Positions 10,951 through 27,252 of a DNA stretch of 64,000 bases are shown here, one piece after another (position 1 is the first letter of the stretch; every line of letters starts with the position of its first letter). The notes below the pieces were generated by a model, which was given only the letters and a program-made list of their open reading frames with translations, had not been told where the DNA came from and ran no database searches. Origin of the DNA: Sphaerospermopsis sp. SIO1G1 (GTDB taxonomy: Bacteria; Cyanobacteriota; Cyanobacteriia; Cyanobacteriales; Nostocaceae); the NCBI GenBank assembly GCA_010672785.1, contig JAAHFX010000009.1, forward strand, positions 2,690 to 66,689. The letters run 5' to 3'. The position numbers and the translations under genes are program-made.

Positions 10951-13053
10951 CTAACCATCATAGGATTGATAGGTTAAATTTTCTGGAGCAGGAAAACTTG
11001 GTGTTGTGTGTCTTGAACTTCCGTTTCTGTGGTTTTCTAATTCCACCATATACTGAATCTCATGTGCAGCCACAGGAATATTTTCTTGGTTGAAACGTTC
11101 CTGAATCATCTGTATCAACTCATCATAAACATACCAAAAGTCTGCGTGAGTTGCCCATGCACCTACATACATGGTCATATAATATCCTTCATAATTCCAT
11201 AAAAATGTTGATGGTTTGGGATTTTCTAGAACTTTGGGATGAGATGTCAAAATTTCCATCAATAGGTTTCTGACTCTTGTCAAATCTTCTTCAAGTCCTA
11301 CTCGCAATAACAGACTAACCATGCGAATGTCACCGTGACTGAGATTTTCAATCATGCCGCTCCAAACAGTATTGTTAGGAATAACATACATCTGTCCAGT
11401 GAAGCCTGAAATTTTGGTACTAGCTAAAGAAATGGAATCTACATAACCCCAAATACCACCGAGTTTAACTTCATCACCAATATCAAAGGGTTTGTTAAAC
11501 ATAATCATCAAACCACTAGCAAAGTTACCCAAATTACTTTGCAAAGCGAATGCTAAGACGAAACTCGCACCCCCAACTAAAGCTAAGATTGGTCCCAGGC
11601 TAACTTCTAATGCTGTCAGTGCTAACAACACACCTACAACAACACCACCACGCTTGACAACCATCACTATGAACTGACGTAGTAGTTCAGAACCACCGTT
11701 CAATTGTTGCAGAGATTTATTAACAATATTCCCTAATGATTGAGAAACGAAGAAAGAAACACCAATAATTCCTACAAATTTACCGATGTTAATGGCCCAA
11801 CGTATACCACCTTCTTCCGATTGTAACCAACTCATAATCCTGACCCCTGCACCTTCAGTATCTTGTAAATCAATCGTAATGATACTGATGGCTTCAATAT
11901 ATTTTTTGTAGGAATCAGGAGTTCCACCTTTACGTTCTAGTTCATCAAGAACTACTTTGAATCTATCAACTAAGGCGGTTCTTTCAGATTGTAGTTCTGT
12001 AACTGTCGCTACGAGTTGATTTTTTAATTCAGCTTCTTCTTGAGCATTTTTATCTAAATTTTCTGCTGCTTGTTCTAATTTATCCCCTTGTTGCTGGATG
12101 CTTTCTTGATCTTTTAAGGAATCTACTGAACCAGCCACTTTTGTACTACCATCGCCATCAATTTGAGTATTATTCAGGGCTGCTTCTGTTTGATTTAATT
12201 CCTGAGAAGATTTTTCGGTTGTATCTTGTGTTTTCACACCTTCTACTTCGTCAACAATTGTCAGGAGATTTTTCTGTGCTGTTTCTAATTGTTGGGTAGC
12301 TGCTTCAAATTCTGCTGAATCAGGAACAGTTTCTTTTTGTTTGTTTTGTGCATCTTCAAAGTCTTTAATTGCTGCCTCTAATCTATCAATTTTTTGGGTA
12401 GCATTGTCATAAGCTAAAGAACCGGCTGTTAATTGTTCTCGCTGGCTTCTAAGCTTGTCTAAATCTACTTTTCCTCGGTCTAAGACTTCTGTTTCTTTTG
12501 CCTTGTCTATGGCATCCTTTAAGTTACTATCCTGTTGGATATCTTTTTTAGCTTCCTGGGCTGCTTGAATAGAATCTTGTGCCTTTTGTAAGTTATCCTT
12601 GGCTTCTTCAAATTTTTTAGTCGCCTCTTCATACTCTGAAGAACCAGGAGCAGCAGATTTCAGTTGTTCTTCAGCCTTACTGAGAGATTCCTGAGCATTT
12701 TTTAAAGCATCCGCAGCTTCTTGTTGTTTATTAATACTTTCGTTCTGTCGCTTAATAGCTATTTCTGCATCACTAACTTGTTGGACTTTGGTCTTGAGTA
12801 AAATTAACCAAGCTGCTGATTCATTTTCCAATTCCGCTAATGTTAGTGGCTTGAGTAACAATTCTAATTGATCAACTGGAACTGTTGGATCTTGAGTGGT
12901 GATCGCAAACTCAGGATTTCCACTAGTAGCAGGTTGAACTTTTTCGCTTGTTTCTGTTTCTGCCGCATTTTCTTGAGTTTTAGCTGGCATACTCCACAGT
13001 GTAAATAGGCACACTACACTGGCAATAACTACGGCACGTACTCGGTAGCGCAT
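10951..13053 (-). CDS. Large mechanosensitive channel (MscS family) with long periplasmic coiled-coil N-terminus
   Basis: Signal peptide, ~400 aa acidic helical region, then GASFVLAFALQSNLGNFASGLMIMFNKPFDIGDEV (MscS core). Confidence 0.88.
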   Translation of the reverse strand: MRYRVRAVVIASVVCLFTLWSMPAKTQENAAETETSEKVQPATSGNPEFAITTQDPTVPVDQLELLLKPLTLAELENESAAWLILLKTKVQQVSDAEIAIKRQNESINKQQEAADALKNAQESLSKAEEQLKSAAPGSSEYEEATKKFEEAKDNLQKAQDSIQAAQEAKKDIQQDSNLKDAIDKAKETEVLDRGKVDLDKLRSQREQLTAGSLAYDNATQKIDRLEAAIKDFEDAQNKQKETVPDSAEFEAATQQLETAQKNLLTIVDEVEGVKTQDTTEKSSQELNQTEAALNNTQIDGDGSTKVAGSVDSLKDQESIQQQGDKLEQAAENLDKNAQEEAELKNQLVATVTELQSERTALVDRFKVVLDELERKGGTPDSYKKYIEAISIITIDLQDTEGAGVRIMSWLQSEEGGIRWAINIGKFVGIIGVSFFVSQSLGNIVNKSLQQLNGGSELLRQFIVMVVKRGGVVVGVLLALTALEVSLGPILALVGGASFVLAFALQSNLGNFASGLMIMFNKPFDIGDEVKLGGIWGYVDSISLASTKISGFTGQMYVIPNNTVWSGMIENLSHGDIRMVSLLLRVGLEEDLTRVRNLLMEILTSHPKVLENPKPSTFLWNYEGYYMTMYVGAWATHADFWYVYDELIQMIQERFNQENIPVAAHEIQYMVELENHRNGSSRHTTPSFPAPENLTYQSYDG

Positions 13054-13305: not shown

Positions 13306-14694
13306 GTGCATTTTAAACATTTACAAAACTCTTATTACACCATGCAAACAATTCATAAGTCAAATCAAGCACTTGTAGACAAAGTTCCTAATCTTAGTAA
13401 TTGTATTTGTGAGAACTTAATTAATTATTTTCTAGAGTCTTGGGAAATTGAAGAAACACTACTCAAAAGTATAATAAACCAAAATACATTTTATCTCAAT
13501 CCTGATCCTTTAAGAAATAAACTAATCTTTTATCTGGGACATTCAGCAGTTTTCTATATCAATAAGTTAATTCGAGTTGGGTTATTAGAACAACCCATTC
13601 ATCCCCAGTTTGAAATATTATTTGAAATTGGAGTTGATCCAGAAACACCAGAAGAATTAGCAGCAGTAACAAAAGATATAGAATGGCCGGATGTAGATCA
13701 AGTTTGGCAATATCGAGAACAAGCCAAAAATGCAATTATAAAAATCATCAAAAATACCCCTTTAAATCTACCTATTCAAGCCCAACATCCCCTTTGGGCT
13801 TTATTAATGGCAATTGAACACAGTCGCATTCATTTTGAAACCTCTTCTATGTTGCTGCGACAATTACCTGTAGATAAATTAGAACGTCCTCATGGTTGGA
13901 ATTATGCCCCTACTCAAGGAAAAACTCCTGCAAATCCAATGATAGAAATTCCTGGTGGAGTGGTGAAATTAGGGAAAAGAACTGATGATTTAACCTTTGC
14001 TTGGGACATGGAATATGGTAGTTTGGAAGTGGAAGTAAAACCCTTTTTAGCTAGTCAAAATTTAATCACCAATGGGGAATTTTTAGAATTTGTGCAAGCT
14101 GGTGGTTATGAAAATTCCGACCATTGGGATGTGGAAGGGTGGAATTGGCAGCAGTTAAATAATGTACAACATCCGAAATTTTGGATACCTGAAAAGCCAG
14201 GTAATTATCGTTATCGTGCTACTTTTGATGAACTAGATTTACCTTTAGATTGGCCAGTAGAAGTCAATTTTTATGAAGCAATTGCCTACTGTTGTTGGCG
14301 GGGTAAAGGGACTCGGTTAATGACCGAAGCAGAATGGAATCAAGCCTTAATTTTTTCTGAGCAAAATTGTTTAGAAAATAGCTATAACCTCAATTTAAAA
14401 TATATTTCACCCTCCCCTGTAGGAATGTTGACAGATTCTCAAAAATCAGTAATTTCTGATTTACGGGGTAATGTTTGGGAATGGTTATCTAGTAAATTTT
14501 ATCCCTTACCAGGATTTGCACCTAATTATCTTTACGAAGATAATGCTCAACCTTTTTTTGATGATAAACATCAGATGATGTTGGGTGGTTCTTGGGCAAC
14601 TAATGGTACAATGGCTTTGCCTTGTTATAGAAATTGGTTTCGTCCTTTTTTCTATCAGCACGTTGGTTTTAGAATTGCTGAAAGTCTAGCCTAG
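13306..14694 (+). CDS. Short OvoA-type 5-histidylcysteine sulfoxide synthase homolog without a C-terminal methyltransferase; likely ergothioneine sulfoxide synthase
   Basis: LRNKLIFYLGHSAVFYINKL (OvoA-like DinB domain); iron motif H-x3-H-x-E (HSRIHFE); FGE-sulfatase domain (GNVWEW, GGSW, YRNWFRPFFYQHVGFR). A later start at ATG 13342 is likely. Confidence 0.85.
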   Translation: MHFKHLQNSYYTMQTIHKSNQALVDKVPNLSNCICENLINYFLESWEIEETLLKSIINQNTFYLNPDPLRNKLIFYLGHSAVFYINKLIRVGLLEQPIHPQFEILFEIGVDPETPEELAAVTKDIEWPDVDQVWQYREQAKNAIIKIIKNTPLNLPIQAQHPLWALLMAIEHSRIHFETSSMLLRQLPVDKLERPHGWNYAPTQGKTPANPMIEIPGGVVKLGKRTDDLTFAWDMEYGSLEVEVKPFLASQNLITNGEFLEFVQAGGYENSDHWDVEGWNWQQLNNVQHPKFWIPEKPGNYRYRATFDELDLPLDWPVEVNFYEAIAYCCWRGKGTRLMTEAEWNQALIFSEQNCLENSYNLNLKYISPSPVGMLTDSQKSVISDLRGNVWEWLSSKFYPLPGFAPNYLYEDNAQPFFDDKHQMMLGGSWATNGTMALPCYRNWFRPFFYQHVGFRIAESLA

Positions 14695-14797
14695 GTGAAA
14701 GGTGACAGTTTTCAAAAACTGTTTATATATGGCTGCATAGCCAAAAAAAAAGATCAAAAAAATTGTCAATAGTTAATTCCCCAGGGCGTAGTAAACC

Positions 14798-15787
14798 ATG
14801 ATTTCAAAAACATTGGAAGCAGAGAATTTAACGGTTTTAGATCATCACTATCATGAACTAAAAGATGAAGGGCAAGATGTAATTAAGGGTTTGAGTAATA
14901 GTCCTAAAACTCTATCTCCTAAGTATTTGTATGATGATCGAGGCTCTTTGTTGTTTGAAGAAATATGTGATTTACCAGAATATTATCCTACTCGTACAGA
15001 AGCAGGGATTTTAAAACAATATGCTGATGAAATTGCAGAAATTACAGGTTGTTGTGAGTTGATAGAATTAGGTAGTGGTAGTTCTACCAAAACCCAGTTT
15101 TTATTAGATGCTTATCAAAAGATTTCTGACTATTGTAAATATCTACCCATTGATGTTAGTGGTAGCATTCTTAAAACCAGTGTTTTACAGTTACAAGAGA
15201 AATATCCTGAATTTCAGGTTCATGGTTTATTAGGAACTTATGAACAGGCGTTAGTTCATTTAGAAACTAATTATTTGCAGTCACGGTTGTTATTTTTCTT
15301 GGGAAGTTCTTTAGGGAATTTTAATCCTCAAGAATGTGATCAGTTCTTATCTAAAGTTGCGCGTACTTTACATCCAGGAGATTACTTTTTATTGGGGATT
15401 GATTTACAGAAACCCAAGCATATTTTAGAAGCAGCTTACAACGATGCTCAAGGAGTAACCGCTGCTTTTAATTTGAATATGCTCTCCCATTTGAATTGGC
15501 GTTTTCAAGGTGATTTTGATCTCAAATTATTCAAACACCAGGCAATTTACAATGAAGTTGACAATCAAATCGAGATGTATCTATACTCACAAGGAAGTCA
15601 TTGGGTAAACATCAAAGACTTGAATTTAACAGTTTTCTTTGAAGCAGGAGAAAGTATTTTAACGGAAATCTCCCGGAAGTTTGATTTAACAAACATGAAA
15701 GAAAGTCTACAAAACAAGGGATTAAACCCGGTAAAAACTTGGACAGATGAAAAGGGATGGTTTGGTTTAATTCTTTGCCAAGCTTAA
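14798..15787 (+). CDS. egtD: L-histidine N(alpha)-methyltransferase
   Basis: LSPKYLYD, LPEYYPTRTE, ELGSGSSTKT, GSSLGNF, AYNDAQGVTAAFN, QIEMYL, ILTEISRKF; His-pocket residues intact. Confidence 0.93.
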   Translation: MISKTLEAENLTVLDHHYHELKDEGQDVIKGLSNSPKTLSPKYLYDDRGSLLFEEICDLPEYYPTRTEAGILKQYADEIAEITGCCELIELGSGSSTKTQFLLDAYQKISDYCKYLPIDVSGSILKTSVLQLQEKYPEFQVHGLLGTYEQALVHLETNYLQSRLLFFLGSSLGNFNPQECDQFLSKVARTLHPGDYFLLGIDLQKPKHILEAAYNDAQGVTAAFNLNMLSHLNWRFQGDFDLKLFKHQAIYNEVDNQIEMYLYSQGSHWVNIKDLNLTVFFEAGESILTEISRKFDLTNMKESLQNKGLNPVKTWTDEKGWFGLILCQA

Positions 15788-15828: not shown

Positions 15829-16803
15829 ATGGCAAATATAGTTGGAGATAAAAAAGTTGTTCATAAACTAGAAGAAGACGTAAAAGCATTCTTTTTAGAG
15901 CAACTGAATGGCAATTTGTGGCCTTACTTGTATGGAACTCCTCAAAATGAAGATGATTTAGTTAAAGGTGGTATCCTATACAACGAAATGCTTGAAGGTG
16001 AACAAGACTATTACCTTTACAAGTATGAAGCAAAACTTTTCCAAAGCAAAGGAAATGTTCTGACTAACCTCATTGGCCCTGATGCAACATTTATTGAATT
16101 AGGCCCTGGTAGTGAACAAAGTATTCGTCTAAAAACTGTACCTTTACTTCGTTTTTGTCAAAACTTAAAGGGTTACCTAGGAATTGAAATTTCCCAATCT
16201 TTTTTGGATAAAGTTTTAGAAGTAATTAGTTCTGAACTACCTAATATCTATGTATCTGGTATTCAGAATGACTTTACCCAACTGGATAGCTTACCAGAAT
16301 TTGATAAACCTGTAATTTTGTTCAAAGGTAGTACCATTGCTAACTTGAGAAAAGACGAAGTTCCTGTTTTCATGTCTTACATCAAGGAATTAGTCGGTAA
16401 AACTCACTATGTACTCCTTGTACATGATGCAAACCAAGATGAAATTTCCTTAATGAAAGCTTACGATACTCCCAAAATGGCAGTATTTATGGAAAACATC
16501 ATGTGTCGTGTTCATCGTGATATGAATTTAGTTGATTTTGATCCACTGGCATTTCGTTATAAGCCTGAATGGCATTCAGAGTCTCATGATCTTAAGCACG
16601 TTCTCACTGCTACTAAATCACAAAAATTTGTGTTAGGAAATAAAACTGTAGAAATTACAGAAGGACAAAAATTCCACACTTTGAGTTCTTTCAAATATCC
16701 TACGGATGTCTTCCAAAAACTCATTAGTTCTGCTGGATATAAACCAGTAGATTTTGTTTTTGATGAGTCTGGGCGTATGGCTGCTCACATTTTTGAGGGA
16801 TAA
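15829..16803 (+). CDS. EgtD-family SAM-dependent methyltransferase, divergent paralog 1
   Basis: DYYL, FIELGPGS, FKGSTIANL, KAYD, HTLSSFKY align to the EgtD fold, but the side-chain pocket is changed. Confidence 0.82.
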   Translation: MANIVGDKKVVHKLEEDVKAFFLEQLNGNLWPYLYGTPQNEDDLVKGGILYNEMLEGEQDYYLYKYEAKLFQSKGNVLTNLIGPDATFIELGPGSEQSIRLKTVPLLRFCQNLKGYLGIEISQSFLDKVLEVISSELPNIYVSGIQNDFTQLDSLPEFDKPVILFKGSTIANLRKDEVPVFMSYIKELVGKTHYVLLVHDANQDEISLMKAYDTPKMAVFMENIMCRVHRDMNLVDFDPLAFRYKPEWHSESHDLKHVLTATKSQKFVLGNKTVEITEGQKFHTLSSFKYPTDVFQKLISSAGYKPVDFVFDESGRMAAHIFEG

Positions 16804-17237: not shown

Positions 17238-18212
17238 ATGACAAATGTAATTGGAGATAAAAAAGTTGTTCATAAACTAGAAGAAGATGCAAAAGCATTC
17301 TTTCTGGATCAACTTGATGGCAATTTGTGGCCTTACTTGTATGGAACTCCCGAAGATGAAAACGACTTAGTTACAGGAGGTATCTTATACAATGAAATAT
17401 TAACACAAGAACCAGATTATTATCTTTACAAATATGAAGCAGAACTTTTCCAAAATAAAGGTGATTTTCTGACTAATATAATTGGTTCGGATGCAACAAT
17501 CATAGAATTAGGCCCTGGTAGTGAACAAAGTGTCCGTTTAAAAACTATACCCTTACTTCGTTCTTTTATTAATTTAAAGGGTTATTTAGGAATTGAAATT
17601 TCTCAATCTTTCTTGGATAAAGCATTAGCAGTAATTAGTTCTGAACTACCTAATATCCATGTGTCTGGCATTCAAAATGACTTTACCCAACTAGAAAGCT
17701 TACCAGAATTTGATAAGCCTGTAATTTTGTTTAAAGGTAGTACAATTGGCAATTTAAGAAAAGATGAAGTTCAAGATTTCATGTCATATATCAAGAACTT
17801 AGTGGGTAAAACTCACTATGTACTCCTTGTACACGATGCAAATCAAGATGAAGTTTCCTTAATGAAAGCTTACAATACACCTAAAGTAGCAATGTTCGTT
17901 AAGAATATCATTTTTCGTTTTCATCGTGATATGAATTTAGTTGATCTTGATCCATCAGCATTTCGTTATCAATCAGAATGGCATTCAGAGTCTCATGATC
18001 TTAAACACATTCTCACTGCTACTAAATCACAAAAATTTGTGTTAGGAAATCAAACTGTAGAAATTAAAGAAGGACAAAAATTCCACACTTTGAGTTCTTT
18101 TAAATATCCCACTGATGTTTTCCAAAAACTCATTAGTTCTGCTGGATATAAACCAGTAGATTTTACTTTTGATGAGTCTGGGCGTATGGCTGCTCATATT
18201 TTTGAGGGCTAG
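17238..18212 (+). CDS. EgtD-family SAM-dependent methyltransferase, divergent paralog 2
   Basis: Same length (324 aa) and colinear with 15829-16803, with long identical blocks (e.g. GQKFHTLSSFKYPTDVFQKLISSAGYKPVDF). Confidence 0.82.
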   Translation: MTNVIGDKKVVHKLEEDAKAFFLDQLDGNLWPYLYGTPEDENDLVTGGILYNEILTQEPDYYLYKYEAELFQNKGDFLTNIIGSDATIIELGPGSEQSVRLKTIPLLRSFINLKGYLGIEISQSFLDKALAVISSELPNIHVSGIQNDFTQLESLPEFDKPVILFKGSTIGNLRKDEVQDFMSYIKNLVGKTHYVLLVHDANQDEVSLMKAYNTPKVAMFVKNIIFRFHRDMNLVDLDPSAFRYQSEWHSESHDLKHILTATKSQKFVLGNQTVEIKEGQKFHTLSSFKYPTDVFQKLISSAGYKPVDFTFDESGRMAAHIFEG

Positions 18213-18858: not shown

Positions 18859-19974
18859 ATGGAATCCATATTTAACGCGCTGAATAGCTTAGATTATTCC
18901 AATGTTCCGATTGGGAAGATATCAGCTGTAATTGTAGTCATAACAGTCACACAAACATTAAGAAGATTTGTCTTAGGAATTATTGTTAAAACTATTGAAA
19001 AATTCACCAGTCAGACGGAAACGACACTGGACGATGAATTAATTGCCATTCTTAAACCAGCATTGAATTGGCTCATTTTTATTAGTGGATTTTGGATAGT
19101 TAAGGAAATTATTTCCGAGGATTTAGGTCCAAAACTGGCTGAAAGTATTGGTAAAGCACTGAACCTAATAGTGGTTTTTATTATCGCCTATGTTGTTTAC
19201 CGCTCTGCATCAATTTTAGGACAACTAATTGCTAACTTTGTTTTACACACGGAAACTGAACTTGATGAATTACTGAAGCCATTAATGCCTAAGATTTTTC
19301 AAGCCGTAGCAATTATTGTGATTGCAATTAAAACTAGTGAGATATTTTTAGGACAATCTGCGGGAGCTTTAGTTGGTTTACTCGGTGGTGCGGGGCTGAC
19401 AATAGGACTACTATTTAAAGATATTGTTTATGATTGGTTTTGTACAATTATTATCTATTCAGATAATCTCTACAGAGAAGGTGATTGGGTGGGAATATCA
19501 GGGGTAGATGGTTTTGTTGAAATCAAAAATATAGGCTTTAGAACTACCACTTTACACCTAGCTAAGTGGGGATCAATCGTAAAAATGCCCAATTCTCGGA
19601 TGATCACTGGAATTGTCGACAATTGGTCTCAGAATCCAGGAGAAGAACTCAGATGGGGTTTAGCAACAACTATCAGAATTGACGGTATTTCTGCCAAACA
19701 AACTGCTAGGATTTGTGATGCTATGGAAGAAATGCCAAAATCAATAGCAGGTTTTGATCCTAGTTGTCTAGTTCGCTTCAAGAAAATTGAAGGAAATGCC
19801 CGTGTTCTTGAAATTATGGCATTTGTGAATGATGATAATCTTTATTTGGCCGCAGAGAGAAACTTACATTTAGCCATCTTAGAACTTTTAGAACAAGAAG
19901 GTATAGACTCTCTCTATGTGGAGTTAATTACAGAAACAGGAAAGTATAATCCCAGTCCAAGTTTCAACAATTAA
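18859..19974 (+). CDS. Mechanosensitive ion channel, MscS family
   Basis: TM helices; GGAGLTIGLLFKD...YREGDWV...IGFRTT...PNS. Confidence 0.88.
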   Translation: MESIFNALNSLDYSNVPIGKISAVIVVITVTQTLRRFVLGIIVKTIEKFTSQTETTLDDELIAILKPALNWLIFISGFWIVKEIISEDLGPKLAESIGKALNLIVVFIIAYVVYRSASILGQLIANFVLHTETELDELLKPLMPKIFQAVAIIVIAIKTSEIFLGQSAGALVGLLGGAGLTIGLLFKDIVYDWFCTIIIYSDNLYREGDWVGISGVDGFVEIKNIGFRTTTLHLAKWGSIVKMPNSRMITGIVDNWSQNPGEELRWGLATTIRIDGISAKQTARICDAMEEMPKSIAGFDPSCLVRFKKIEGNARVLEIMAFVNDDNLYLAAERNLHLAILELLEQEGIDSLYVELITETGKYNPSPSFNN

Positions 19975-20004: not shown

Positions 20005-20610
20005 ATGAAAACCAAAAACACTACTACTAACATCAACACGATTTATCCCAATAAAATCTGGACAAAAGTATTACTAATTACAGGGATAATTTTTTGTACA
20101 TCTTCTATGTATTCTTCTCCCGTTCAAGCTCAATCAAAAATTGACCAAGGAATTAACAACGACAAAATTTTAATAGCCCAAACTCTAGGAGGAATCATCC
20201 GCAAAATTCCTATTTCTGAAGTTCCACTTCCAGCCATGTCAGCGGCAAAAACAGTCACAAATGCTCAGTTTAACCAAGCTAGAATTGAACTGCAATCAGA
20301 GGGTTCTTCGATCTATGTACTCAGAGGTAAAAATCAACAAGGTTTTGAAGTAGAAGTGCAAGTTTCTCCTAGCGGAACAATTATGCAAGTAGACGAACAA
20401 ATAGATCCCACTTCAGTACCAGAAATTGCTGTTAGATCTTTTAAAAGATGGGCCCCCAATGATCCTCTGTTAAGTATTTGGCGTAGTACCAGACTAGGGG
20501 AATTATACTACCAATTTGTGATTGAGGAATTTTGGTTAGAAGTCTCCACCGATGGAGAAAAAGTTATTATTTATGACAGAACAAAATTGACACAGAGTTT
20601 AGGCAGATGA
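20005..20610 (+). CDS. Secreted protein with PepSY-like (BLIP-like) repeats
   Basis: Signal peptide AQS; two units beginning ISEVPLPA... and PTSVPEIA..., each followed by Y-x-x-x and EV-x-V-S-x-x-G. Confidence 0.55.
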   Translation: MKTKNTTTNINTIYPNKIWTKVLLITGIIFCTSSMYSSPVQAQSKIDQGINNDKILIAQTLGGIIRKIPISEVPLPAMSAAKTVTNAQFNQARIELQSEGSSIYVLRGKNQQGFEVEVQVSPSGTIMQVDEQIDPTSVPEIAVRSFKRWAPNDPLLSIWRSTRLGELYYQFVIEEFWLEVSTDGEKVIIYDRTKLTQSLGR

Positions 20611-20862: not shown

Positions 20863-22443
20863 ATGGACATTTTAATCATTCTAGCTGAAGTTTTTTTAGT
20901 CATTCTATTTTTCATCATCCTGAGATTAATGGTGGCTAGTTCATTTAAGATATTAACTAGATTATCAATACTCAAGGGTGACAATTTAAAAATAAAAATA
21001 TTACGCCGTAACATCACTGGATTGTTGTTGCTGATATGTTTATTATTATGTACTGCTATTATCGGTATTAATAGTTTTCTCATCTATCAGGGGGAAAATC
21101 TCCAAGAATATACAATCAACCTCATTAATCAGATTCCTACTGGATTTTGGTTTGAATTGGGAAAAGGAATTGCTCAATGCTTTGTTTTGGTATTTGTAGC
21201 ATTTCTAGCTGTCAAGTTGACAAAATATTTATTCAAAAAAGCTAGTAATAAAGCTAAGAGATTTACAGAAAGCATCGCAGATGATGAAAGTATTGATGCT
21301 TTTTTTACCGCCCTTAATACAAGAATGAAAGTAGGAATTTGGATATGGGTTGTGATTGCCTGTACCCAATTCTTGCGTTTACCCATAGTAATCTTAGAAT
21401 ATTTATACATTGGACTGCGAATTTATCTAATTATTGCGGTAGGATTACTAATACTTAAAGCAGTAGATGCAATTGTTGACACTATAGATGTTCTGAGTGT
21501 CAGATACTCCAGTCCTGATCAAATATTGAGATTTTATGATCCCCTCAAACATCTGATTCCATTTTTAAAAAGATGTTTAGAATTGGTAATTTATGTCTGC
21601 ATACTAACATTAGTAATTCAGCAGGTAAAACTAATAGCTAACTTAGCAGGTTTTGGAGTTAAAATTATCCAAATTATCGCTATTATTTTTATCAGTCGTG
21701 TTATTTTCCAAGTAATTTGTTTACTGATGGAAGAGTTTTTATTACGAGATAATAGTTTAACTGATACCCAAAGAAGTAGACGTTTAACTCTAATTCCTTT
21801 ATTCCGCAGTTTATTACAATATCTTACTTACTTTACGGCGGCGGTTTCCATTCTCTATATTCTTAATATTAATCCCACTCCAATTTTAGCCGGTGCTGGT
21901 ATTGTTGGTCTCGCTGTAGGTTTAGGAGCGCAAACACTAATTAATGATATGGTTTGTGGGTTTTTTATTTTGTTTGAAAACTATTACTTAGTAGGTGATT
22001 ATATTCAGACAGTGAAAGAAGAAAGAACATTAGAAGGCGTTGTGGAAGCAATAGAATTGAGAACAACTCGAATTAGACATCCCAATGGACAATTGTATAT
22101 TATCCGTAATGGAGAGATTGGCTCAATTACAAATTATTCTAAAGATTACATCTTTGCTGTAGTAGAACTTAATGTACCTCATGATTCTGATTTAGCTGCT
22201 ATAGCTCAAAAAATTGAAGCAATAGGTAAACAATTACAAGTGAATGATCCTAATATACTTGAACCTACTTTTGTAGATGGTATAGAAAGTATTGGTGAGT
22301 CTAACTTGTTATTGCGAACTTTGACAAAAATGAAACCAGGACAACATCTTCAAGTACAGCGTACTCTTCGGAAAATTTATATAGATACTTTTTTAGCAGA
22401 GGGAATTTTACTTTCTACAGCTAATGAAGATAGCAATGATTAA
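20863..22443 (+). CDS. Mechanosensitive ion channel, MscS family, with extended N-terminal membrane region
   Basis: LAGAGIVGLAVGLGAQTLINDMVCGFFILFENYYLVGDYI...LRTTRIR...IIRNG. Confidence 0.9.
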   Translation: MDILIILAEVFLVILFFIILRLMVASSFKILTRLSILKGDNLKIKILRRNITGLLLLICLLLCTAIIGINSFLIYQGENLQEYTINLINQIPTGFWFELGKGIAQCFVLVFVAFLAVKLTKYLFKKASNKAKRFTESIADDESIDAFFTALNTRMKVGIWIWVVIACTQFLRLPIVILEYLYIGLRIYLIIAVGLLILKAVDAIVDTIDVLSVRYSSPDQILRFYDPLKHLIPFLKRCLELVIYVCILTLVIQQVKLIANLAGFGVKIIQIIAIIFISRVIFQVICLLMEEFLLRDNSLTDTQRSRRLTLIPLFRSLLQYLTYFTAAVSILYILNINPTPILAGAGIVGLAVGLGAQTLINDMVCGFFILFENYYLVGDYIQTVKEERTLEGVVEAIELRTTRIRHPNGQLYIIRNGEIGSITNYSKDYIFAVVELNVPHDSDLAAIAQKIEAIGKQLQVNDPNILEPTFVDGIESIGESNLLLRTLTKMKPGQHLQVQRTLRKIYIDTFLAEGILLSTANEDSND

Positions 22444-22536
22444 TTTTCTATAATCTTATTTACATTCCTAACCTCTTGCAATTATTATTCATATCAAGTT
22501 AAATGAATTTTATGAAGCAAATGGAGCTAAATACCT

Positions 22537-25110
22537 ATGAAAAATTTTAACACAGTATCTACTAAATACTCAAAATTTATAACTGCTACTTTAGTCGGTG
22601 CAACAACTACTATTTTTACAGCTAATACTGCATTTGCTCAAGTATTGAGAGGTGCTGGTGATGGTTTTGTAGAACCATTGCTAGAAAGTTATCGCCAAGA
22701 ATATGAAAAAGAAACAGGTGAAAAATTCAAATATACTGCTGTTGGTAGCGGTGGAGGAATTAGATTTTTTATTAATGACTCTGTAGATTTTGCTGCTACT
22801 ACTTTAATTCCTAGCCCCATTGAAATCAATCAAATGAAAGATGGTGCATTAATGTTGCCAACAGGGGGCGGTAGTATATCTGTTATTTATAATTTGCAAG
22901 AAGTTAGTAGCACGGTGCAATTATCCCGTGAAAAATTAGCGAAAATATTCACAGGTGAAATCACAAATTGGCAACAGGTAAATCCTAGATTTCCGAATCT
23001 AGAAATTCAAGTAGTAACTTGTGCTAAAAATTGTAGCACCAATTTTATTCTTACCAAATATCTCAATAAAATTACTGGGGGAAAAATATTACCTAGTAGA
23101 AATCCAGAATGGAGTTTTCCGATTTTTTCAGAATTAACAGATGACAGTGCGATCGCTGGCGAAGTACGCAGAACCGATGGAGCAATTGGTTATGTACAAA
23201 CTAGTGTAGCAATGAGAGAAAATATTACGATTGCTAGTCTGGAAAATAAGAGTGGTAATTATGTTCAACCAACTTTAGCAGAAACAAGAAAAGCCTTAGC
23301 AAATGTCAAATTCAGTAGTGATTTTACCACCGAAGATATTCAAGATCCAGAAAGTGGTTATCCTTTGGTGAGTTTAACTTGGCTATTACTTCCTCAAAGG
23401 TATGATGATCCAGAAGTTCTCGCCAAAACCCAAAAATTATTAGGATGGATTTTTACCCAAGGACAACAATTAAATCAAAATTTAGGATATACAAAAGTTC
23501 CTGATGAAATTAATAAAAAAGCCATTGCAGCCATTAAAAATCAATTACAAGTTGGTTCTGTAGCAGGAGTTAGCGGCAACAATTTAAAATTAAATTATAT
23601 CGGTAATTTATATGATAATGCTCCCAGTAATGTCCGACCAATTGTTAATGTCAACAAATTAGTAGATGTGAGTCCTCAACATTGGGCTTATTCAGCATTG
23701 AATGATTTGGCTGAACAACATCAATGTTTGAGTGGTACTTCTCGCAATACTTTTTCTGGGAATAGATCATTAAGTCGCCATGAATTTGCATTTATGTTAC
23801 ATTCCTGTTTATGGCAAATTAGACTTTCCTTAGATGATTTAAGAAAAAATAAAATTGCTGATGAAGATGATTTAGCAGTTGTACAAAGATTACAAACAGA
23901 ATTTAGTCAAGAACTAGAACAAGTATCCCAGAGAGTAGATAACTTAGAATCAAAAACAGCCACAATTCAAGCCCAGCAATTTAGTACAACTACTGTTTTA
24001 AAAGGCAGAGTTGATTTTAATGCCATTAGTGGTTTTGGTGATCGCAAAGCAGTACCTCCTGGTACTAATAACGCTGAAAAATTAACAGCAAATCCCACCT
24101 TTTCTGGCAGAGCATCATTAACTCTAGATACCAGTTTTACAGGTAAAGATAAACTGCAAACTCAACTAGTTGCAGGGAATATTAATAACCTCAGTAGTGC
24201 GATCACAGGCACAGATATGACAAGGTTAATCGGTGCTACAAACACAGGTAATGATGTGATATTGGGAACAATATATTATCAATTTCCTGTAGGAGATAAA
24301 GGCATAATTGCGATCGCACCAGCAGCAGATTTTCCTACTCGTATTTTTCCTGCACTTAACCCAGTCAGTTCCATTTCTAACTTTGGTGCAGAAAGTCCCA
24401 TTTATTCCTTTGCATTTGGTAGTGGTGCAATCGGTTACTATCAATTTAGTGATCAATTAGCAGCAGGAATTAGTTATTTAAGTCTTTCGGGTAATGATCC
24501 CAGTGAAGGAGGATTATTTGGGGGACAATATACCCTATTAAGTCAAATAACTTATACCCCATCAGATCAGCTAGGTATTGCTTTTACCTATGGTAATTAT
24601 TATGCACCCAGACCAGGATCAAGTCTTAATGTAACTGGTAGTAAAGGTAGTGAATTTGGTCAATTACCATTTGGAGGAGATACACCTACTTCTTCCAATG
24701 CTTTTGGTTTACAACTAACCTATAAAATCACTGATAAATTAGTGTTGGGCGGTTGGACAAGCTATTTTAATACAGAAAGCCAAGCCACAGCTAATTTGAA
24801 TGGAGTTAACTTTGATGCTGGTGCTAATGCAGATATTTGGAGTTGGGCAGTCACAGCATCCTTAACAGATATAGCTAAATCAGGTAGTCAGTTAAGTTTT
24901 GTATTTGGAATGCCACCTAAAGTTACAAGCAATGATATCTTGCAACGACAGGATCAAGATACTTCCTTACATTTTGAATTATCTTATCGTTACCCATTAA
25001 CAGAAAGAATTAATCTTACCCCTGGATTTTTAATGATTACTAATCCAGAACATAATAACGCTAATGATACAATCTGGGTAGGATTATTGAGAACCTCATT
25101 TAGTTTTTGA
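22537..25110 (+). CDS. Fusion of a PstS-fold substrate-binding domain with an SLH domain and OprB-type (carbohydrate/iron-uptake) porin
   Basis: One signal peptide (TAFA/Q). Residues ~35-337 are PstS-like (GAG, VGSGGG, DGAIGYV, GYPLVSLTWLL). Then SLH-like DVSPQHWAYSALNDL...LSRHEFA, a coiled coil, QFSTTTVLKG and a beta-barrel ending in ...RTSFSF. Confidence 0.88.
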   Translation: MKNFNTVSTKYSKFITATLVGATTTIFTANTAFAQVLRGAGDGFVEPLLESYRQEYEKETGEKFKYTAVGSGGGIRFFINDSVDFAATTLIPSPIEINQMKDGALMLPTGGGSISVIYNLQEVSSTVQLSREKLAKIFTGEITNWQQVNPRFPNLEIQVVTCAKNCSTNFILTKYLNKITGGKILPSRNPEWSFPIFSELTDDSAIAGEVRRTDGAIGYVQTSVAMRENITIASLENKSGNYVQPTLAETRKALANVKFSSDFTTEDIQDPESGYPLVSLTWLLLPQRYDDPEVLAKTQKLLGWIFTQGQQLNQNLGYTKVPDEINKKAIAAIKNQLQVGSVAGVSGNNLKLNYIGNLYDNAPSNVRPIVNVNKLVDVSPQHWAYSALNDLAEQHQCLSGTSRNTFSGNRSLSRHEFAFMLHSCLWQIRLSLDDLRKNKIADEDDLAVVQRLQTEFSQELEQVSQRVDNLESKTATIQAQQFSTTTVLKGRVDFNAISGFGDRKAVPPGTNNAEKLTANPTFSGRASLTLDTSFTGKDKLQTQLVAGNINNLSSAITGTDMTRLIGATNTGNDVILGTIYYQFPVGDKGIIAIAPAADFPTRIFPALNPVSSISNFGAESPIYSFAFGSGAIGYYQFSDQLAAGISYLSLSGNDPSEGGLFGGQYTLLSQITYTPSDQLGIAFTYGNYYAPRPGSSLNVTGSKGSEFGQLPFGGDTPTSSNAFGLQLTYKITDKLVLGGWTSYFNTESQATANLNGVNFDAGANADIWSWAVTASLTDIAKSGSQLSFVFGMPPKVTSNDILQRQDQDTSLHFELSYRYPLTERINLTPGFLMITNPEHNNANDTIWVGLLRTSFSF

Positions 25111-25149: not shown

Positions 25150-25647
25150 ATGATGAGACCACAACCTATAACACCAAAACCAGGACAAGAATCTGTTTGG
25201 GACTATCCCCGTCCAGCAATTTTACAAGATACCGATAAGCACCTCAAAGTAATTTGTAATGGTATTGTTTTAGCCGAAACTACTAGAGCTAAAAGAGTAT
25301 TAGAAACCAGTCATCCACCTACTTATTATTTTCCACCAGAAGATATTAAAATAGAATATCTAATAGCCACACCTAGAAAGACTTTATGTGAATGGAAAGG
25401 TAGATGTCAGTATTATGATCTTTCCATAGAAGGCAAGTATATAAATACCGCAGCTTGGCGATATTTTGATGCCACTCCTGATTTTGTTCCCATTCAAGAA
25501 TATTATGGTTTGTATGCCAGTGTCATGGATGCTTGTTATGTAAATGATGAGTTAGTTATTCATCAAGCTGGCGATTTTTATGGTGGATGGATCACTGCGG
25601 ATATTGTTGGCCCATTTAAAGGTGAAGCTGGTACTTGGGGATGGTAA
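25150..25647 (+). CDS. DUF427 domain protein
   Basis: ESVWDYPRP, VLETSHPPTYYFP, CEWKG, FYGGWIT. Confidence 0.9.
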   Translation: MMRPQPITPKPGQESVWDYPRPAILQDTDKHLKVICNGIVLAETTRAKRVLETSHPPTYYFPPEDIKIEYLIATPRKTLCEWKGRCQYYDLSIEGKYINTAAWRYFDATPDFVPIQEYYGLYASVMDACYVNDELVIHQAGDFYGGWITADIVGPFKGEAGTWGW

Positions 25648-25896: not shown

Positions 25897-27252
25897 ATGA
25901 AAATTTCAGTAGTTAAAATTGAGAATTTGACAGTTCATGAACATCATCTAGATATTCTCTATAGTGCTGATAAATTTAATTTTTCCACTAAGATTTTTTA
26001 TCATGATGTTTCTTTTTCTGGGTTAATTAGCAAATACTCTCAACCCTTTATCCAGAAAATTGCTGCCCATATAGCCTTATTTGAAGGGATGAAACTATGT
26101 TCTCTCTTCCCACAGTTTTATGATATTTCTAATATTGCTGAATATTTAGAACCCCCAGTTATAGACTTGTTTGTGCAAATATATCAAGGGGTATTTGGGC
26201 AACATTGGTATGAAAATAATATTACCGACTATCAACAACCAGAAATTATTTACTCCCAAGAATTAGGAGTAAGTCAACCTCTGGCAATTTTAGATGAGAA
26301 TGAAACTATTCTCGCTGGTTGTGGTGGTGGTAAAGATAGTATTGTTGCTATGAAAATGTTAGAAGCAGCAAACATTGATTTTGCTTCCATGCAGTATTCC
26401 CATAGCGTTTATGGAAAAGCTGATTTTCAGCATGAGTTAATATCTCAAGTTGTCGAAGATTTGCAACCAAATAATAAACATCAAATCTCTATTTTTGATG
26501 ATTTTACAGACTTTCCATTTCTGCAATTGTATTTTTCTCAAAATTCCGGTATTACTGCACCAGAAACACCAGTATCAATTTTTGAATCTTTGATTTTAAT
26601 GTTAGATAAAGGATATAAATATTTATGTTTAGCACATGAAAAAAGTGCAAACACTGGTAATTTATTTTGGGATGAAATCGGCAAAGAAGTGAATCATCAA
26701 TGGGGTAAAGGTTTAGAAGCAGAAGAGATTTTAGATCAATTTATTCAAAATCACCTAATAACTAACTTCAAATATTTTAGTATTTTACAACCAATTTACG
26801 ATTACCGCATTTTCCAAAACTTTAGTCAATATCCTGAATTTATAACCAAAACTCATTCATGTAATATCAAAAAACCCTGGTGCAAAAAATGTCCTAAATG
26901 TGCCTATGTTTGGTTAGGAATGATGGCATTTTCACAGCAAAACTTAGTCAATGAAGTTTTTGAAAATAACTTATTTGATGATGAAGATTTACTTCCTACC
27001 TTCCGCCAAATGGTAGGTTTAGGTGAACACACACCCTTTGAATGTATTGGTGAAATTGAAGAAAGTCGGTTATTGATGAAAAGATGTTTAGAAAGGGGTT
27101 TAACTGGGAAAGCTTTGGATATGTTTACTGAAGAGATTTTATCAAAAAGTAAAATTAATTGGCAGAAAATAGAAGATAAATATAATTACGTTTACGCAAC
27201 AGAACACGCTATTCCTGATTGGATATTTGAGAGAATTAAGGAACTGTTTTAA
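25897..27252 (+). CDS. MurL-like (UDP-MurNAc-L-Ala-L-Glu epimerase family) PP-loop protein
   Basis: GGGKDS PP-loop; HEKSA...EVNHQWGKG; YFSILQP; HSCN...WCKKCPKC; FENNLFDD; HTPFECIGE..ESR in the order found in MurL. Confidence 0.72.
   Translation: MKISVVKIENLTVHEHHLDILYSADKFNFSTKIFYHDVSFSGLISKYSQPFIQKIAAHIALFEGMKLCSLFPQFYDISNIAEYLEPPVIDLFVQIYQGVFGQHWYENNITDYQQPEIIYSQELGVSQPLAILDENETILAGCGGGKDSIVAMKMLEAANIDFASMQYSHSVYGKADFQHELISQVVEDLQPNNKHQISIFDDFTDFPFLQLYFSQNSGITAPETPVSIFESLILMLDKGYKYLCLAHEKSANTGNLFWDEIGKEVNHQWGKGLEAEEILDQFIQNHLITNFKYFSILQPIYDYRIFQNFSQYPEFITKTHSCNIKKPWCKKCPKCAYVWLGMMAFSQQNLVNEVFENNLFDDEDLLPTFRQMVGLGEHTPFECIGEIEESRLLMKRCLERGLTGKALDMFTEEILSKSKINWQKIEDKYNYVYATEHAIPDWIFERIKELF

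Follow-up and report, generated by a model that had tools for sequence, protein, structure and literature searches.

A PstS-fold binding domain fused to an outer membrane porin in Sphaerospermopsis: a rare single-chain form of a conserved three-gene cyanobacterial cassette

Results

A binding domain and a porin in one polypeptide

A 64,000-nucleotide stretch of the genome of Sphaerospermopsis sp. SIO1G1 (assembly GCA_010672785.1, contig JAAHFX010000009.1, positions 2,690 to 66,689; here called the window) carries an open reading frame of 857 amino acids that joins a periplasmic binding domain of the PstS fold to a complete outer membrane porin. The frame runs without interruption from 22537 to 25110 on the forward strand, stop codon included. 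On the same strand lie genes for an OvoA-type sulfoxide synthase and EgtD, two MscS-family channels, a secreted PepSY-like protein (fam1) and, downstream, a DUF427 protein (Table 1). A previous reading of the window, made from the sequence only, had described a single open reading frame with a Sec signal that lacks a lipobox cysteine, followed toward the C terminus by an SLH-like motif, a coiled coil and a full porin barrel ending in phenylalanine. Profile hidden Markov models (HMMs), AlphaFold2 (AF2) modeling and Foldseek searches confirm this overall architecture, with a subthreshold match for the SLH-like motif.

Table 1. Features of the fusion gene and of its surroundings, in window coordinates
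Feature	Position	Strand	Basis or remark
Sec-type signal peptide, residues 1 to 34	22537..22638	+	Cleavage between ...TAFA and QVL; homologous to signal peptides of unfused PstS-like proteins
PstS-fold (type II periplasmic binding protein) domain, porin-linked subfamily, residues 35 to 340	22639..23556	+	Pfam, TIGR00975, Foldseek
Cleft residues D42/G43 (positions 9/10)	22660-22665	+	Ala9 to Asp, Thr10 to Gly
Cleft residue T89 (position 56)	22801-22803	+	Asp56 to Thr
Remodeled anion-binding loop C162-A-K-N-C166-S-T	23020..23040	+	Replaces R135-A-D-G-S139-G-T141 of E. coli PstS
Fusion junction, residues 340 to 357 (GSVAGVSGNNLKLNYIGN)	23554..23607	+	Deduced from 26 unfused loci
Conserved pre-SLH segment (LYDNAP...IVNVNKL) and SLH-like domain with Cys397/Cys424 pair, residues 358 to 437	23608..23847	+	Pfam, AF2
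Coiled-coil stalk, a long alpha-helix of 38 residues, residues 443 to 480	23863..23976	+	AF2; layout as in OmpM1 (8byt)
OprB/SomB-type beta-barrel of 16 strands with terminal Phe, residues 485 to 857, and stop codon	23989..25110	+	Pfam, NCBIfam, AF2, Foldseek
fam1, secreted tandem PepSY/BLIP-like protein (family of about 190 residues), first cassette gene	20005..20610	+	AF2, Foldseek, weak Pfam
Promoter-like site TTTACA-18-TATTAT	22459..22488	+	Consensus match only, in the 93-nt spacer 5' of the fusion gene
OvoA-N-terminal-type sulfoxide synthase and EgtD	13306..15787	+	TIGR04344, 563 bits (cutoff 400); TIGR03438, 411 bits (cutoff 291)
MscS-family channel, 371 residues, directly 5' of fam1	18859..19974	+	Pfam MS_channel_2nd; adjoins most D9-type cassettes
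MscS-family channel, 526 residues, between fam1 and the fusion gene	20863..22443	+	Pfam MS_channel_1st/2nd; NCBIfam MscS, 163 bits, below cutoff
DUF427 gene, 39 nt 3' of the fusion gene	25150..25647	+	No terminator-like site between; many D9-type cassettes have such a gene a few kb away or less

The signal peptide contains no lipobox cysteine, the first cysteine of the protein being residue 162. The N-terminal domain has the type II periplasmic binding protein (PBP) fold of PstS: Pfam PBP_like_2 matches residues 35 to 292 (E = 4e-30), the sequence aligns with E. coli PstS over about 300 residues (E = 3e-34), and Foldseek retrieves PstS structures, among them 1quk (E = 3e-16, TM-score on the target of 0.75). 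The domain scores below the cutoffs of both PstS equivalog models, TIGR00975 (181.7 versus 205) and NF008171 (135.1 versus 339).

The C-terminal part, from the SLH region to the barrel, is recognized as a porin by Pfam OprB (PF04966; residues 445 to 857, E = 6e-39, 135 bits versus a cutoff of 22.9) and by NCBIfam por_somb (NF033921, "iron uptake porin"; residues 370 to 857, 441 bits versus 100). The Pfam SLH match (residues 377 to 418) is weak, its 13.9 bits falling below the cutoff of 20.8; orthologs carry PF00395 above the cutoff. With its barrel, Foldseek retrieves Omp32 (2fgq), OprB (4gey), OprP and the SLH-stalk-barrel porin OmpM1 (8byt), and the protein ends in ...RTSFSF, a C-terminal aromatic beta-signal. 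The name "iron uptake porin" was carried over from Synechocystis paralogs, and no Fur-related or iron-related genes were seen within the cassette described below.

The AF2 model of the fusion protein (95-row alignment; mean predicted local distance difference test [pLDDT] score, 69.6; predicted TM-score [pTM], 0.46) consists of a PBP fold at residues 44 to 336, a disordered linker at residues 341 to 373 (pLDDT < 50), SLH helices at residues 383 to 395 and 414 to 437, and 16 beta-strands within residues 485 to 856. At a pTM of 0.46 it offers no confident inter-domain packing. The protein has four cysteines, namely, the conserved pair in the SLH-like domain and a pair in the binding pocket (residues 162 and 166). 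Lying N-terminal to the SLH-like domain and the stalk, the binding domain is necessarily periplasmic.

The fusion recurs in independent assemblies and is under selection

At least six other assemblies contain a full-length fused ortholog. These include Okeanomitos corallinicola TIOX110 (854 residues, 82% identical, on a 5.1-Mb contig), Anabaena sp. UHCC 0451 (854 residues, 80% identical), a Logan metagenome contig (853 residues, 72% identical) and ENA metagenome contigs (873 residues, 59% identical). Fused open frames of 871 to 883 residues were also found in three GTDB genomes (G298, G312 and G338), the last of which belongs to the same genus as unfused Calothrix/Rivularia-type genomes. Among the three closest fused genes, the ratio of nonsynonymous to synonymous substitution rates (dN/dS) is 0.13 to 0.27 in the binding domain, 0.13 to 0.16 in the barrel and 0.35 to 0.43 in the linker. 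Both halves have thus been under purifying selection since the fusion.

In a public protein collection, the gene is represented by a 553-residue call (P0005), annotated plainly as "iron uptake porin," that starts at an ATT codon at window position 23449, inside the PBP domain. Such a call is what one might expect if the fusion were a sequencing or assembly error or the read-through of a pseudogene. Against this stand the occurrence of the same junction in independent assemblies, one of them the 5.1-Mb contig, the lack of any stop codon or frameshift in the frame, and the dN/dS values. Given the same fusion in at least six independent assemblies and purifying selection on it, we conclude that the fusion is not an artefact and leave that explanation next to no probability. 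Internal restart of translation at the ATT codon was considered and rejected; the codon lies within a helix of the PBP fold and is not followed by a signal peptide. The ATT start is an annotation choice that reflects homology-guided annotation, and the deposited annotation probably truncates the gene, hiding the fusion.

No other PBP-porin fusion was found among the best 150 matches in a representative library of 1.84 billion proteins, and full-text literature searches turned up accounts of neither a PBP-porin fusion nor the cassette, in keeping with the remark in the sequence-only reading that the architecture was not recognized as described. The long porins among these matches have low-complexity extensions only. 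The library also contains tandem two-domain PstS-type PBPs (P0139, 931 residues; P0225, 748 residues), which are unrelated to porins.

The fusion gene is a single-chain form of a conserved three-gene cassette

We used the N-terminal domain as a query against 389 Nostocaceae species genomes. The matches split into ordinary PstS paralogs (36 to 41% identical) and a distinct subfamily (56 to 70% identical, E <= 1e-127) that was present in 40 genomes, 36 times as a standalone protein of about 340 residues and four times fused. An orthologous porin lay immediately downstream on the same strand in all 30 Nostocaceae loci fetched. When named genomes were scanned as well, about 65 further loci came to light, and the range now took in Nostocales, Oscillatoriales (Microcoleus, Phormidium, Microseira, Floridaenema, Aerosakkonema, Potamolinea, Symploca and Caldora) and Pleurocapsales (Xenococcus PCC 7305 and Pleurocapsa), with the PstS-like protein and the porin encoded by separate, adjacent genes in about 60 species. 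The fused architecture is thus neither a one-off nor the original state, being derived from a cassette of separate genes.

We define the cassette as a PepSY-like gene, a PstS-like gene with the Asp56-to-Thr substitution and a cassette-type porin gene, in this order on one strand. Where enough flanking sequence was available, the porin gene followed the PstS-like gene in 57 of 59 loci and fam1 preceded it in 63 of 63. This invariant third partner, a secreted PepSY-like protein, had been missed by the sequence-only reading. Its AF2 model has a core pLDDT above 90, Foldseek matches are DUF2874/BLIP-like periplasmic proteins, and the Pfam PepSY_like match is weak. In the window, fam1 is followed by the fused PstS-like/porin gene, with an MscS gene inserted between them (Table 1). 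In basal lineages, the three genes are the only ones shared and are separated by gaps of 22 and 45 nt, which indicates an operon. No transporter was found as an ancestral partner in the basal loci, where the other neighbors are lineage specific (an ArsA-like ATPase, UbiA, a helix-turn-helix regulator and a polysaccharide deacetylase). In the Caldora and Symploca loci, an XRE-type helix-turn-helix gene (228 residues; L092:8508-9194 and L093:8401-9087, minus strand) is divergent from fam1 and is a candidate local regulator of the cassette. The cassette is rare: in an even sample of the phylum, 7 of 401 genomes had it, and it is missing from G299, which is congeneric with the window's organism.

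Neither pstC nor pstA occurs near any of the approximately 70 cassette loci or in the window, for which the absence of pstCAB had already been claimed, and the binding domain of the fusion has no pstC, pstA or pstB adjacent to it. Two canonical pstS-pstC-pstA operons, each with its own pstS, lie elsewhere in the genome (contigs C12 and C34). Of the seven porin paralogs that the genome encodes, the fused one shares no more than 40% identity with any of the others, compared to 58 to 67% with cassette porins of other genera. Taken together, these results identify the fusion gene as a rare single-chain form of a conserved cassette that encodes, in order, a PepSY-like protein, a PstS-like protein and a SomB-type porin with SLH domain, coiled coil and 16-strand barrel.

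A further unusual PstS-family protein is encoded in the same genome (L003; G000:C34, frame from about 109130), where an open frame of about 1,000 residues combines a signal peptide, a PBP_like_2 domain, a transmembrane segment and an acidic low-complexity tail of more than 400 residues.

In-frame deletions gave rise to the fusion more than once

Unfused binding proteins of the cassette end in ...NNEVKIRP[F/Y] and a stop codon. Unfused cassette porins have their own signal peptide (MKKLDVPFTLTSLILSGNLLTSSPVVAQ...), then a variable low-complexity extension and then a conserved segment, LYSNAPPDLDEIVNVNQL...WAYEAL. The junction in the window reads ...KNQLQV-GSVAGVSGNNLKLNYIGN-LYDNAPSNVRPIVNVNKL... 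Relative to 26 unfused loci, an in-frame deletion has taken out the stop codon and spacer together with the signal peptide of the porin and most of its extension. The sequence-only reading had proposed that no second signal peptide is present at the junction and that the fusion is not a simple loss of a stop codon, and both proposals are borne out by this comparison. It had also described a linker of about 35 residues. A disordered stretch of that size exists, but only about 18 residues of it (340 to 357) are new, the rest being the conserved pre-SLH segment of the porin.

In a maximum-likelihood tree of N-terminal domains, the porin-linked subfamily is monophyletic (support 96/100) and separate from ordinary PstS. 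The fused state maps onto this tree as three changes, one for the window's clade and one or two in the Calothrix/Rivularia-type branch. Junctions in the 873-residue group are different and longer, and those of two proteins, P0006 and P0007, are also unlike each other. We conclude that the fusion arose independently two or three times.

A C-terminal tail ending in ...P[YF] is specific to the cassette. It was present in 51 of 61 unfused proteins, is absent from the ordinary PstS proteins of this genome and is gone at the window's junction. As a weak clue, the tail could serve in docking, a function no longer needed once the two proteins were covalently joined.

The phosphate-binding pocket has been remodeled

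Pocket residues were numbered by alignment to E. coli PstS. At the eight phosphate-ligand positions (T10, F11, S38, D56, R135, S139, G140 and T141), the window's protein has G, F, S, T, C, C, S and T, respectively. Five of the eight positions are therefore changed, with F11, S38 and T141 kept, and what had been called a complete PstS-like domain is complete in fold but not in its phosphate ligands. The pocket, which we call C-type, comprises D42, G43, F44, S71, T89, C162, K164, C166, S167 and T168.

The Asp56-to-Thr substitution is found in every cassette member. Beyond it, the basal pocket keeps Ala9 (A9 pocket), has Ser (or Ala/Thr) at position 10, and keeps F11, S38, S139, G140 and T141, with Arg at position 135 (R-type). 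In a Microcoleus-type branch, also with the A9 pocket, position 135 is Gln. A derived clade that includes the window (support 98/100) has exchanged Ala9 for Asp (D9 pocket) and lost Arg135, and the D9 pocket has a single origin on the tree. Within this clade, C-type members have Cys135 and Cys139, and N-type members have Asn135, Glu137 and Ser139. Both cysteines occur together in 22 loci, and either one alone occurs in none.

The loss of the arginine, the gained aspartate and the smaller side chains argue against canonical orthophosphate binding, which the window's protein should not support. Judged by the residues that line it, the cleft should be larger and less cationic and either disulfide bridged or thiol lined. 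The earlier proposal of a tethered periplasmic capture domain that could act as a ligand trap, concentrator or gate stands as regards its place in the periplasm, N-terminal to the SLH-like domain and stalk, although with Arg135, Ser139, Thr10 and Asp56 all replaced, a trap for phosphate is unlikely here.

Pocket type is linked to the neighboring genes

The OvoA-type synthase and EgtD encoded upstream of the cassette form the cyanobacterial ergothioneine pair (Liao & Seebeck 2017, as cited in PMC9103826). We compared pocket type with the surrounding gene module in loci for which 6 kb or more of upstream sequence was available. Among loci with D9 pockets, 20 of 22 had the OvoA-type synthase and EgtD together with one or two MscS-family channels nearby. 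Orthologs of the 526-residue MscS channel adjoin the cassette in many of these loci, and in Fischerella PCC 9431 (L036), the OvoA-type gene runs into the 5' end of fam1, an arrangement suggestive of cotranslation with the cassette. Near 14 D9 loci, a fusion of a betaine-type ATP-binding cassette (ABC) permease with an OpuAC/OsmF-like binding domain is encoded 2 to 9 kb away on the opposite strand (e.g., L036:3338-4888). This is the architecture of EgtU, an ergothioneine importer that is likewise a fusion of permease and solute-binding domain (10.1101/2022.05.02.490363).

A9 pockets (Arg or Gln at position 135) have other neighbors. In 13 loci, these are a dCache-HAMP-cyclase-globin sensor, a bacterial cyclic nucleotide-gated (bCNG)-type channel and a second PBP_like_2 protein; in 8 loci, nothing recognizable was found, and 2 had MscS genes. 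Examples of the A9-type module, which lies upstream of the cassette (L040:11827-17189 and L041:3108-8843), encode an adenylate/guanylate cyclase sensor, an MscS-like channel that binds cyclic nucleoside monophosphates (cNMPs) and a ptsS_2-type protein (below cutoff). The physiological role of bCNG channels is not established (PMC13591265), and the module may offer a handle on it. We regard the links between pocket type and neighboring module as suggestive.

Other genes of the region include two EgtD-like methyltransferase paralogs that follow the canonical EgtD (15829-16803 and 17238-18212; TIGR03438, 151 and 170 bits versus a cutoff of 291). A 72% identical homolog lies near the cassette in a metagenome-assembled genome of Symploca (L096:3397-4371). 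Downstream, positions 25897-27252 encode a 451-residue protein with no Pfam match and only a distant match to the MurL family (NF041275, 143 bits versus a cutoff of 700).

Regulatory signals upstream of the fusion gene

The promoter-like site in the spacer upstream of the fusion gene (Table 1) is to be read against the number of such sites in the region, which does not exceed that in shuffled sequence. Pho boxes were scored as three 8-bp PyTTAAPyPy(T/A) repeats at 11-bp spacing (maximum 24). The best Pho-box-like repeat 5' of the fusion gene scored 18/24, the mode of the background, compared to 20/24 for a canonical pstS promoter. Upstream of fam1, no convincing Pho-box enrichment was detected across 59 loci, and the few higher scores fell within orthologous coding sequence. 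No riboswitch or other RNA element was matched in Rfam at E <= 0.1 between positions 12500 and 26500.

Discussion

Periplasmic binding proteins are textbook partners of inner membrane ABC and tripartite ATP-independent periplasmic (TRAP) transporters and of sensors. The recurrent, retained fusion, the invariant adjacency to the porin and the absence of an adjacent pstCAB point to the porin, and not the Pst ABC importer, as the likely normal workplace of the subfamily described here. Recurrent "Rosetta-stone" fusion of proteins that share a compartment is the main evidence from which we infer that the two cooperate physically, and it supports such cooperation between binding domain and porin. 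We propose that the cassette encodes a porin-associated receptor which, in the window's clade, has been retuned to a non-phosphate solute. We hold this proposal, taken whole, to be an even call. Its structural and evolutionary part is near certain; its functional part is tentative and somewhat doubtful.

The proposed mechanism is as follows. The product would be exported once, via Sec, and the barrel would insert into the outer membrane. By analogy with OmpM-type porins, the SLH-like domain and stalk would reach and hold on to the cell wall layer. The binding domain would then hang on a flexible linker of about 30 residues at the periplasmic (inner) end of the stalk, presumably three to a trimer, as a receptor stationed under its own pore. 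In the window's clade, this receptor may have been retuned from an oxyanion to another small, non-phosphate solute. It might capture solute passing its porin, such that the solute is retained or handed on and not lost by diffusion. Because of the neighboring genes and the thiol- and carboxylate-lined cleft, the best candidate ligand would be a thiol-histidine betaine, either free or complexed with a metal. Ergothioneine is a chelator of Cu and Fe (10.1101/2022.05.02.490363), and no exporter is known for it, although mechanosensitive channels have been suggested (PMC12689799). A broader version of the proposal, in which the cassette, often together with an MscS-family or cNMP-gated channel, forms a new envelope solute system with a PBP serving a porin and not an inner membrane transporter, and in which the remodeled-pocket branch handles ergothioneine-type betaines or their metal complexes, strikes us as unlikely, if worth stating.

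Several points weigh against the proposed receptor. Phylogeny confounds the association of pocket type with gene module, the D9 pocket having arisen once. In basal lineages and at the fused Okeanomitos locus, neither MscS nor ergothioneine genes lie near the cassette, so they are not obligatory partners, and an EgtU-like gene is absent from the window's own genome. The AF2 model is least confident precisely at the pocket loops (residues 70 to 83 and 163 to 170; pLDDT < 50). Anchored at the wall layer, a receptor could not travel to the inner membrane, which makes it hard to see how capture would aid net transport, and for the unfused proteins, docking on the porin is presumed.

The PstS fold invites the alternative view that the domain still binds orthophosphate and raises its concentration where a phosphate-scavenging porin opens into the periplasm, much as if PstS were tethered to PhoE or OprP. 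Som porins of marine cyanobacteria are induced under phosphorus starvation, and ancestral R-type members retain S10, F11, S38, R135, S139, G140 and T141, so that for the R-type this may well hold. For the window's protein, we give it little chance: it has lost Arg135, Ser139, Thr10 and Asp56 and gained Asp at position 9, it scores below the TIGR00975 and NF008171 cutoffs, no Pho-box signal above background precedes its gene or is enriched in the 59 loci, and its neighbors are not phosphorus acquisition genes. The fusion might, on the other hand, matter little. If a compartment and an operon are all that the two proteins have in common, the linker could be cut or the tether indifferent, and the fusion would say nothing on mechanism; the disordered linker is indeed the fastest-evolving part of the protein, and fusions are rare, occurring in 4 of about 40 cassette-bearing Nostocaceae species. 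Yet the fusion has been kept through 18 to 28% protein divergence in at least four lineages, each of its two or three origins involved a precise loss of the second signal peptide, and the binding domain is still under purifying selection, all of which makes a neutral fusion distinctly unlikely in our judgment.

Two further alternatives assign the domain a role in controlling or extending the pore. As a ligand-controlled gate, its closure would alter packing on the stalk or barrel mouth and so regulate the permeability of a single porin, an idea with which one binding domain per porin subunit, the short linker (about 18 new residues), the possible docking peptide in the ...P[YF] tail and the ever-present PepSY-like partner are compatible. 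The domain, however, precedes the SLH-like domain and a 38-residue stalk and would be far from the barrel mouth if that stalk is extended as in OmpM1, and the model packs no domains together with confidence. A gate is accordingly quite improbable. A trans-envelope route, in which the PstS-like and PepSY-like proteins bridge an inner membrane MscS channel to the porin for regulated release of ergothioneine or osmolytes, has a small chance at best. It draws on the MscS-family genes that most loci of Nostocales, Microcoleus and Rivularia carry no more than 10 kb from the cassette, with plain MscS beside D9 cassettes and the bCNG-type channel, dCache-cyclase sensor and second PBP beside R- and Q-type ones. 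It is at odds with the lack of an MscS gene near the cassette in Symploca, Caldora, Xenococcus, Pleurocapsa and the fused Okeanomitos, and with the window's MscS proteins, in which Pfam reveals no large periplasmic domain.

If the porin-associated receptor is real, a PBP subfamily with an outer membrane porin as its conserved partner would be a new role for the fold and would make the outer membrane of cyanobacteria, about whose porins little is understood, selective at one more level. The series of pockets (near-canonical oxyanion, Cys-pair and Asn/Glu), each with its own neighbors, is a ready-made system for studying changes in ligand specificity. The linkage to ergothioneine and MscS genes touches both on ergothioneine export and on the role of bCNG channels, and the remodeled-pocket branch, if the broader version of the proposal is true, would supply the outer-envelope step so far missing from ergothioneine release or recapture. 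The fused proteins, with both partners in one polypeptide, are convenient reagents.

Several known systems bear comparison with the fusion protein. With PstS (E. coli 1IXH/1QUK; cryo-electron microscopy structure 9K3S), it shares the type II PBP fold, and its unfused relatives are Sec-exported and soluble in the periplasm. Unlike PstS, cassette proteins never adjoin pstCAB and always adjoin a porin and a PepSY-like gene, and the window's binding domain is covalently tethered to an outer membrane protein. Its C-terminal 490 residues are a full member of the porin family of SomA/SomB, Slr1908/Slr1841 of Synechocystis, and Alr4550 and others of Anabaena. Compared to these SLH-OprB porins, the fused porin belongs to a distinct orthogroup encoded in a dedicated cassette, and a folded binding domain of 300 residues replaces the signal peptide and low-complexity extension. 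OmpM1 of Veillonella parvula (8BYT), like other SLH-stalk-barrel porins that tether the outer membrane, has the same succession of SLH domain, extended helical stalk and porin barrel. This shared layout indicates the likely geometry of the fusion protein, in which the SLH-like domain would be bound to the wall polymer and the barrel embedded in the outer membrane, but OmpM has nothing N-terminal to its SLH domain and no associated binding protein. SusC/SusD, TbpA/TbpB, and PhoE or OprP with PstS offer a functional analogy, that of a binder paired with a specific outer membrane channel for one class of solute. SusD and TbpB, however, are surface lipoproteins of unrelated folds on the outer face of the membrane, whereas the binder of the fusion is a PBP on the periplasmic side; PhoE or OprP and PstS are neither cassette adjacent nor fused, and PstS delivers its ligand to PstCAB.

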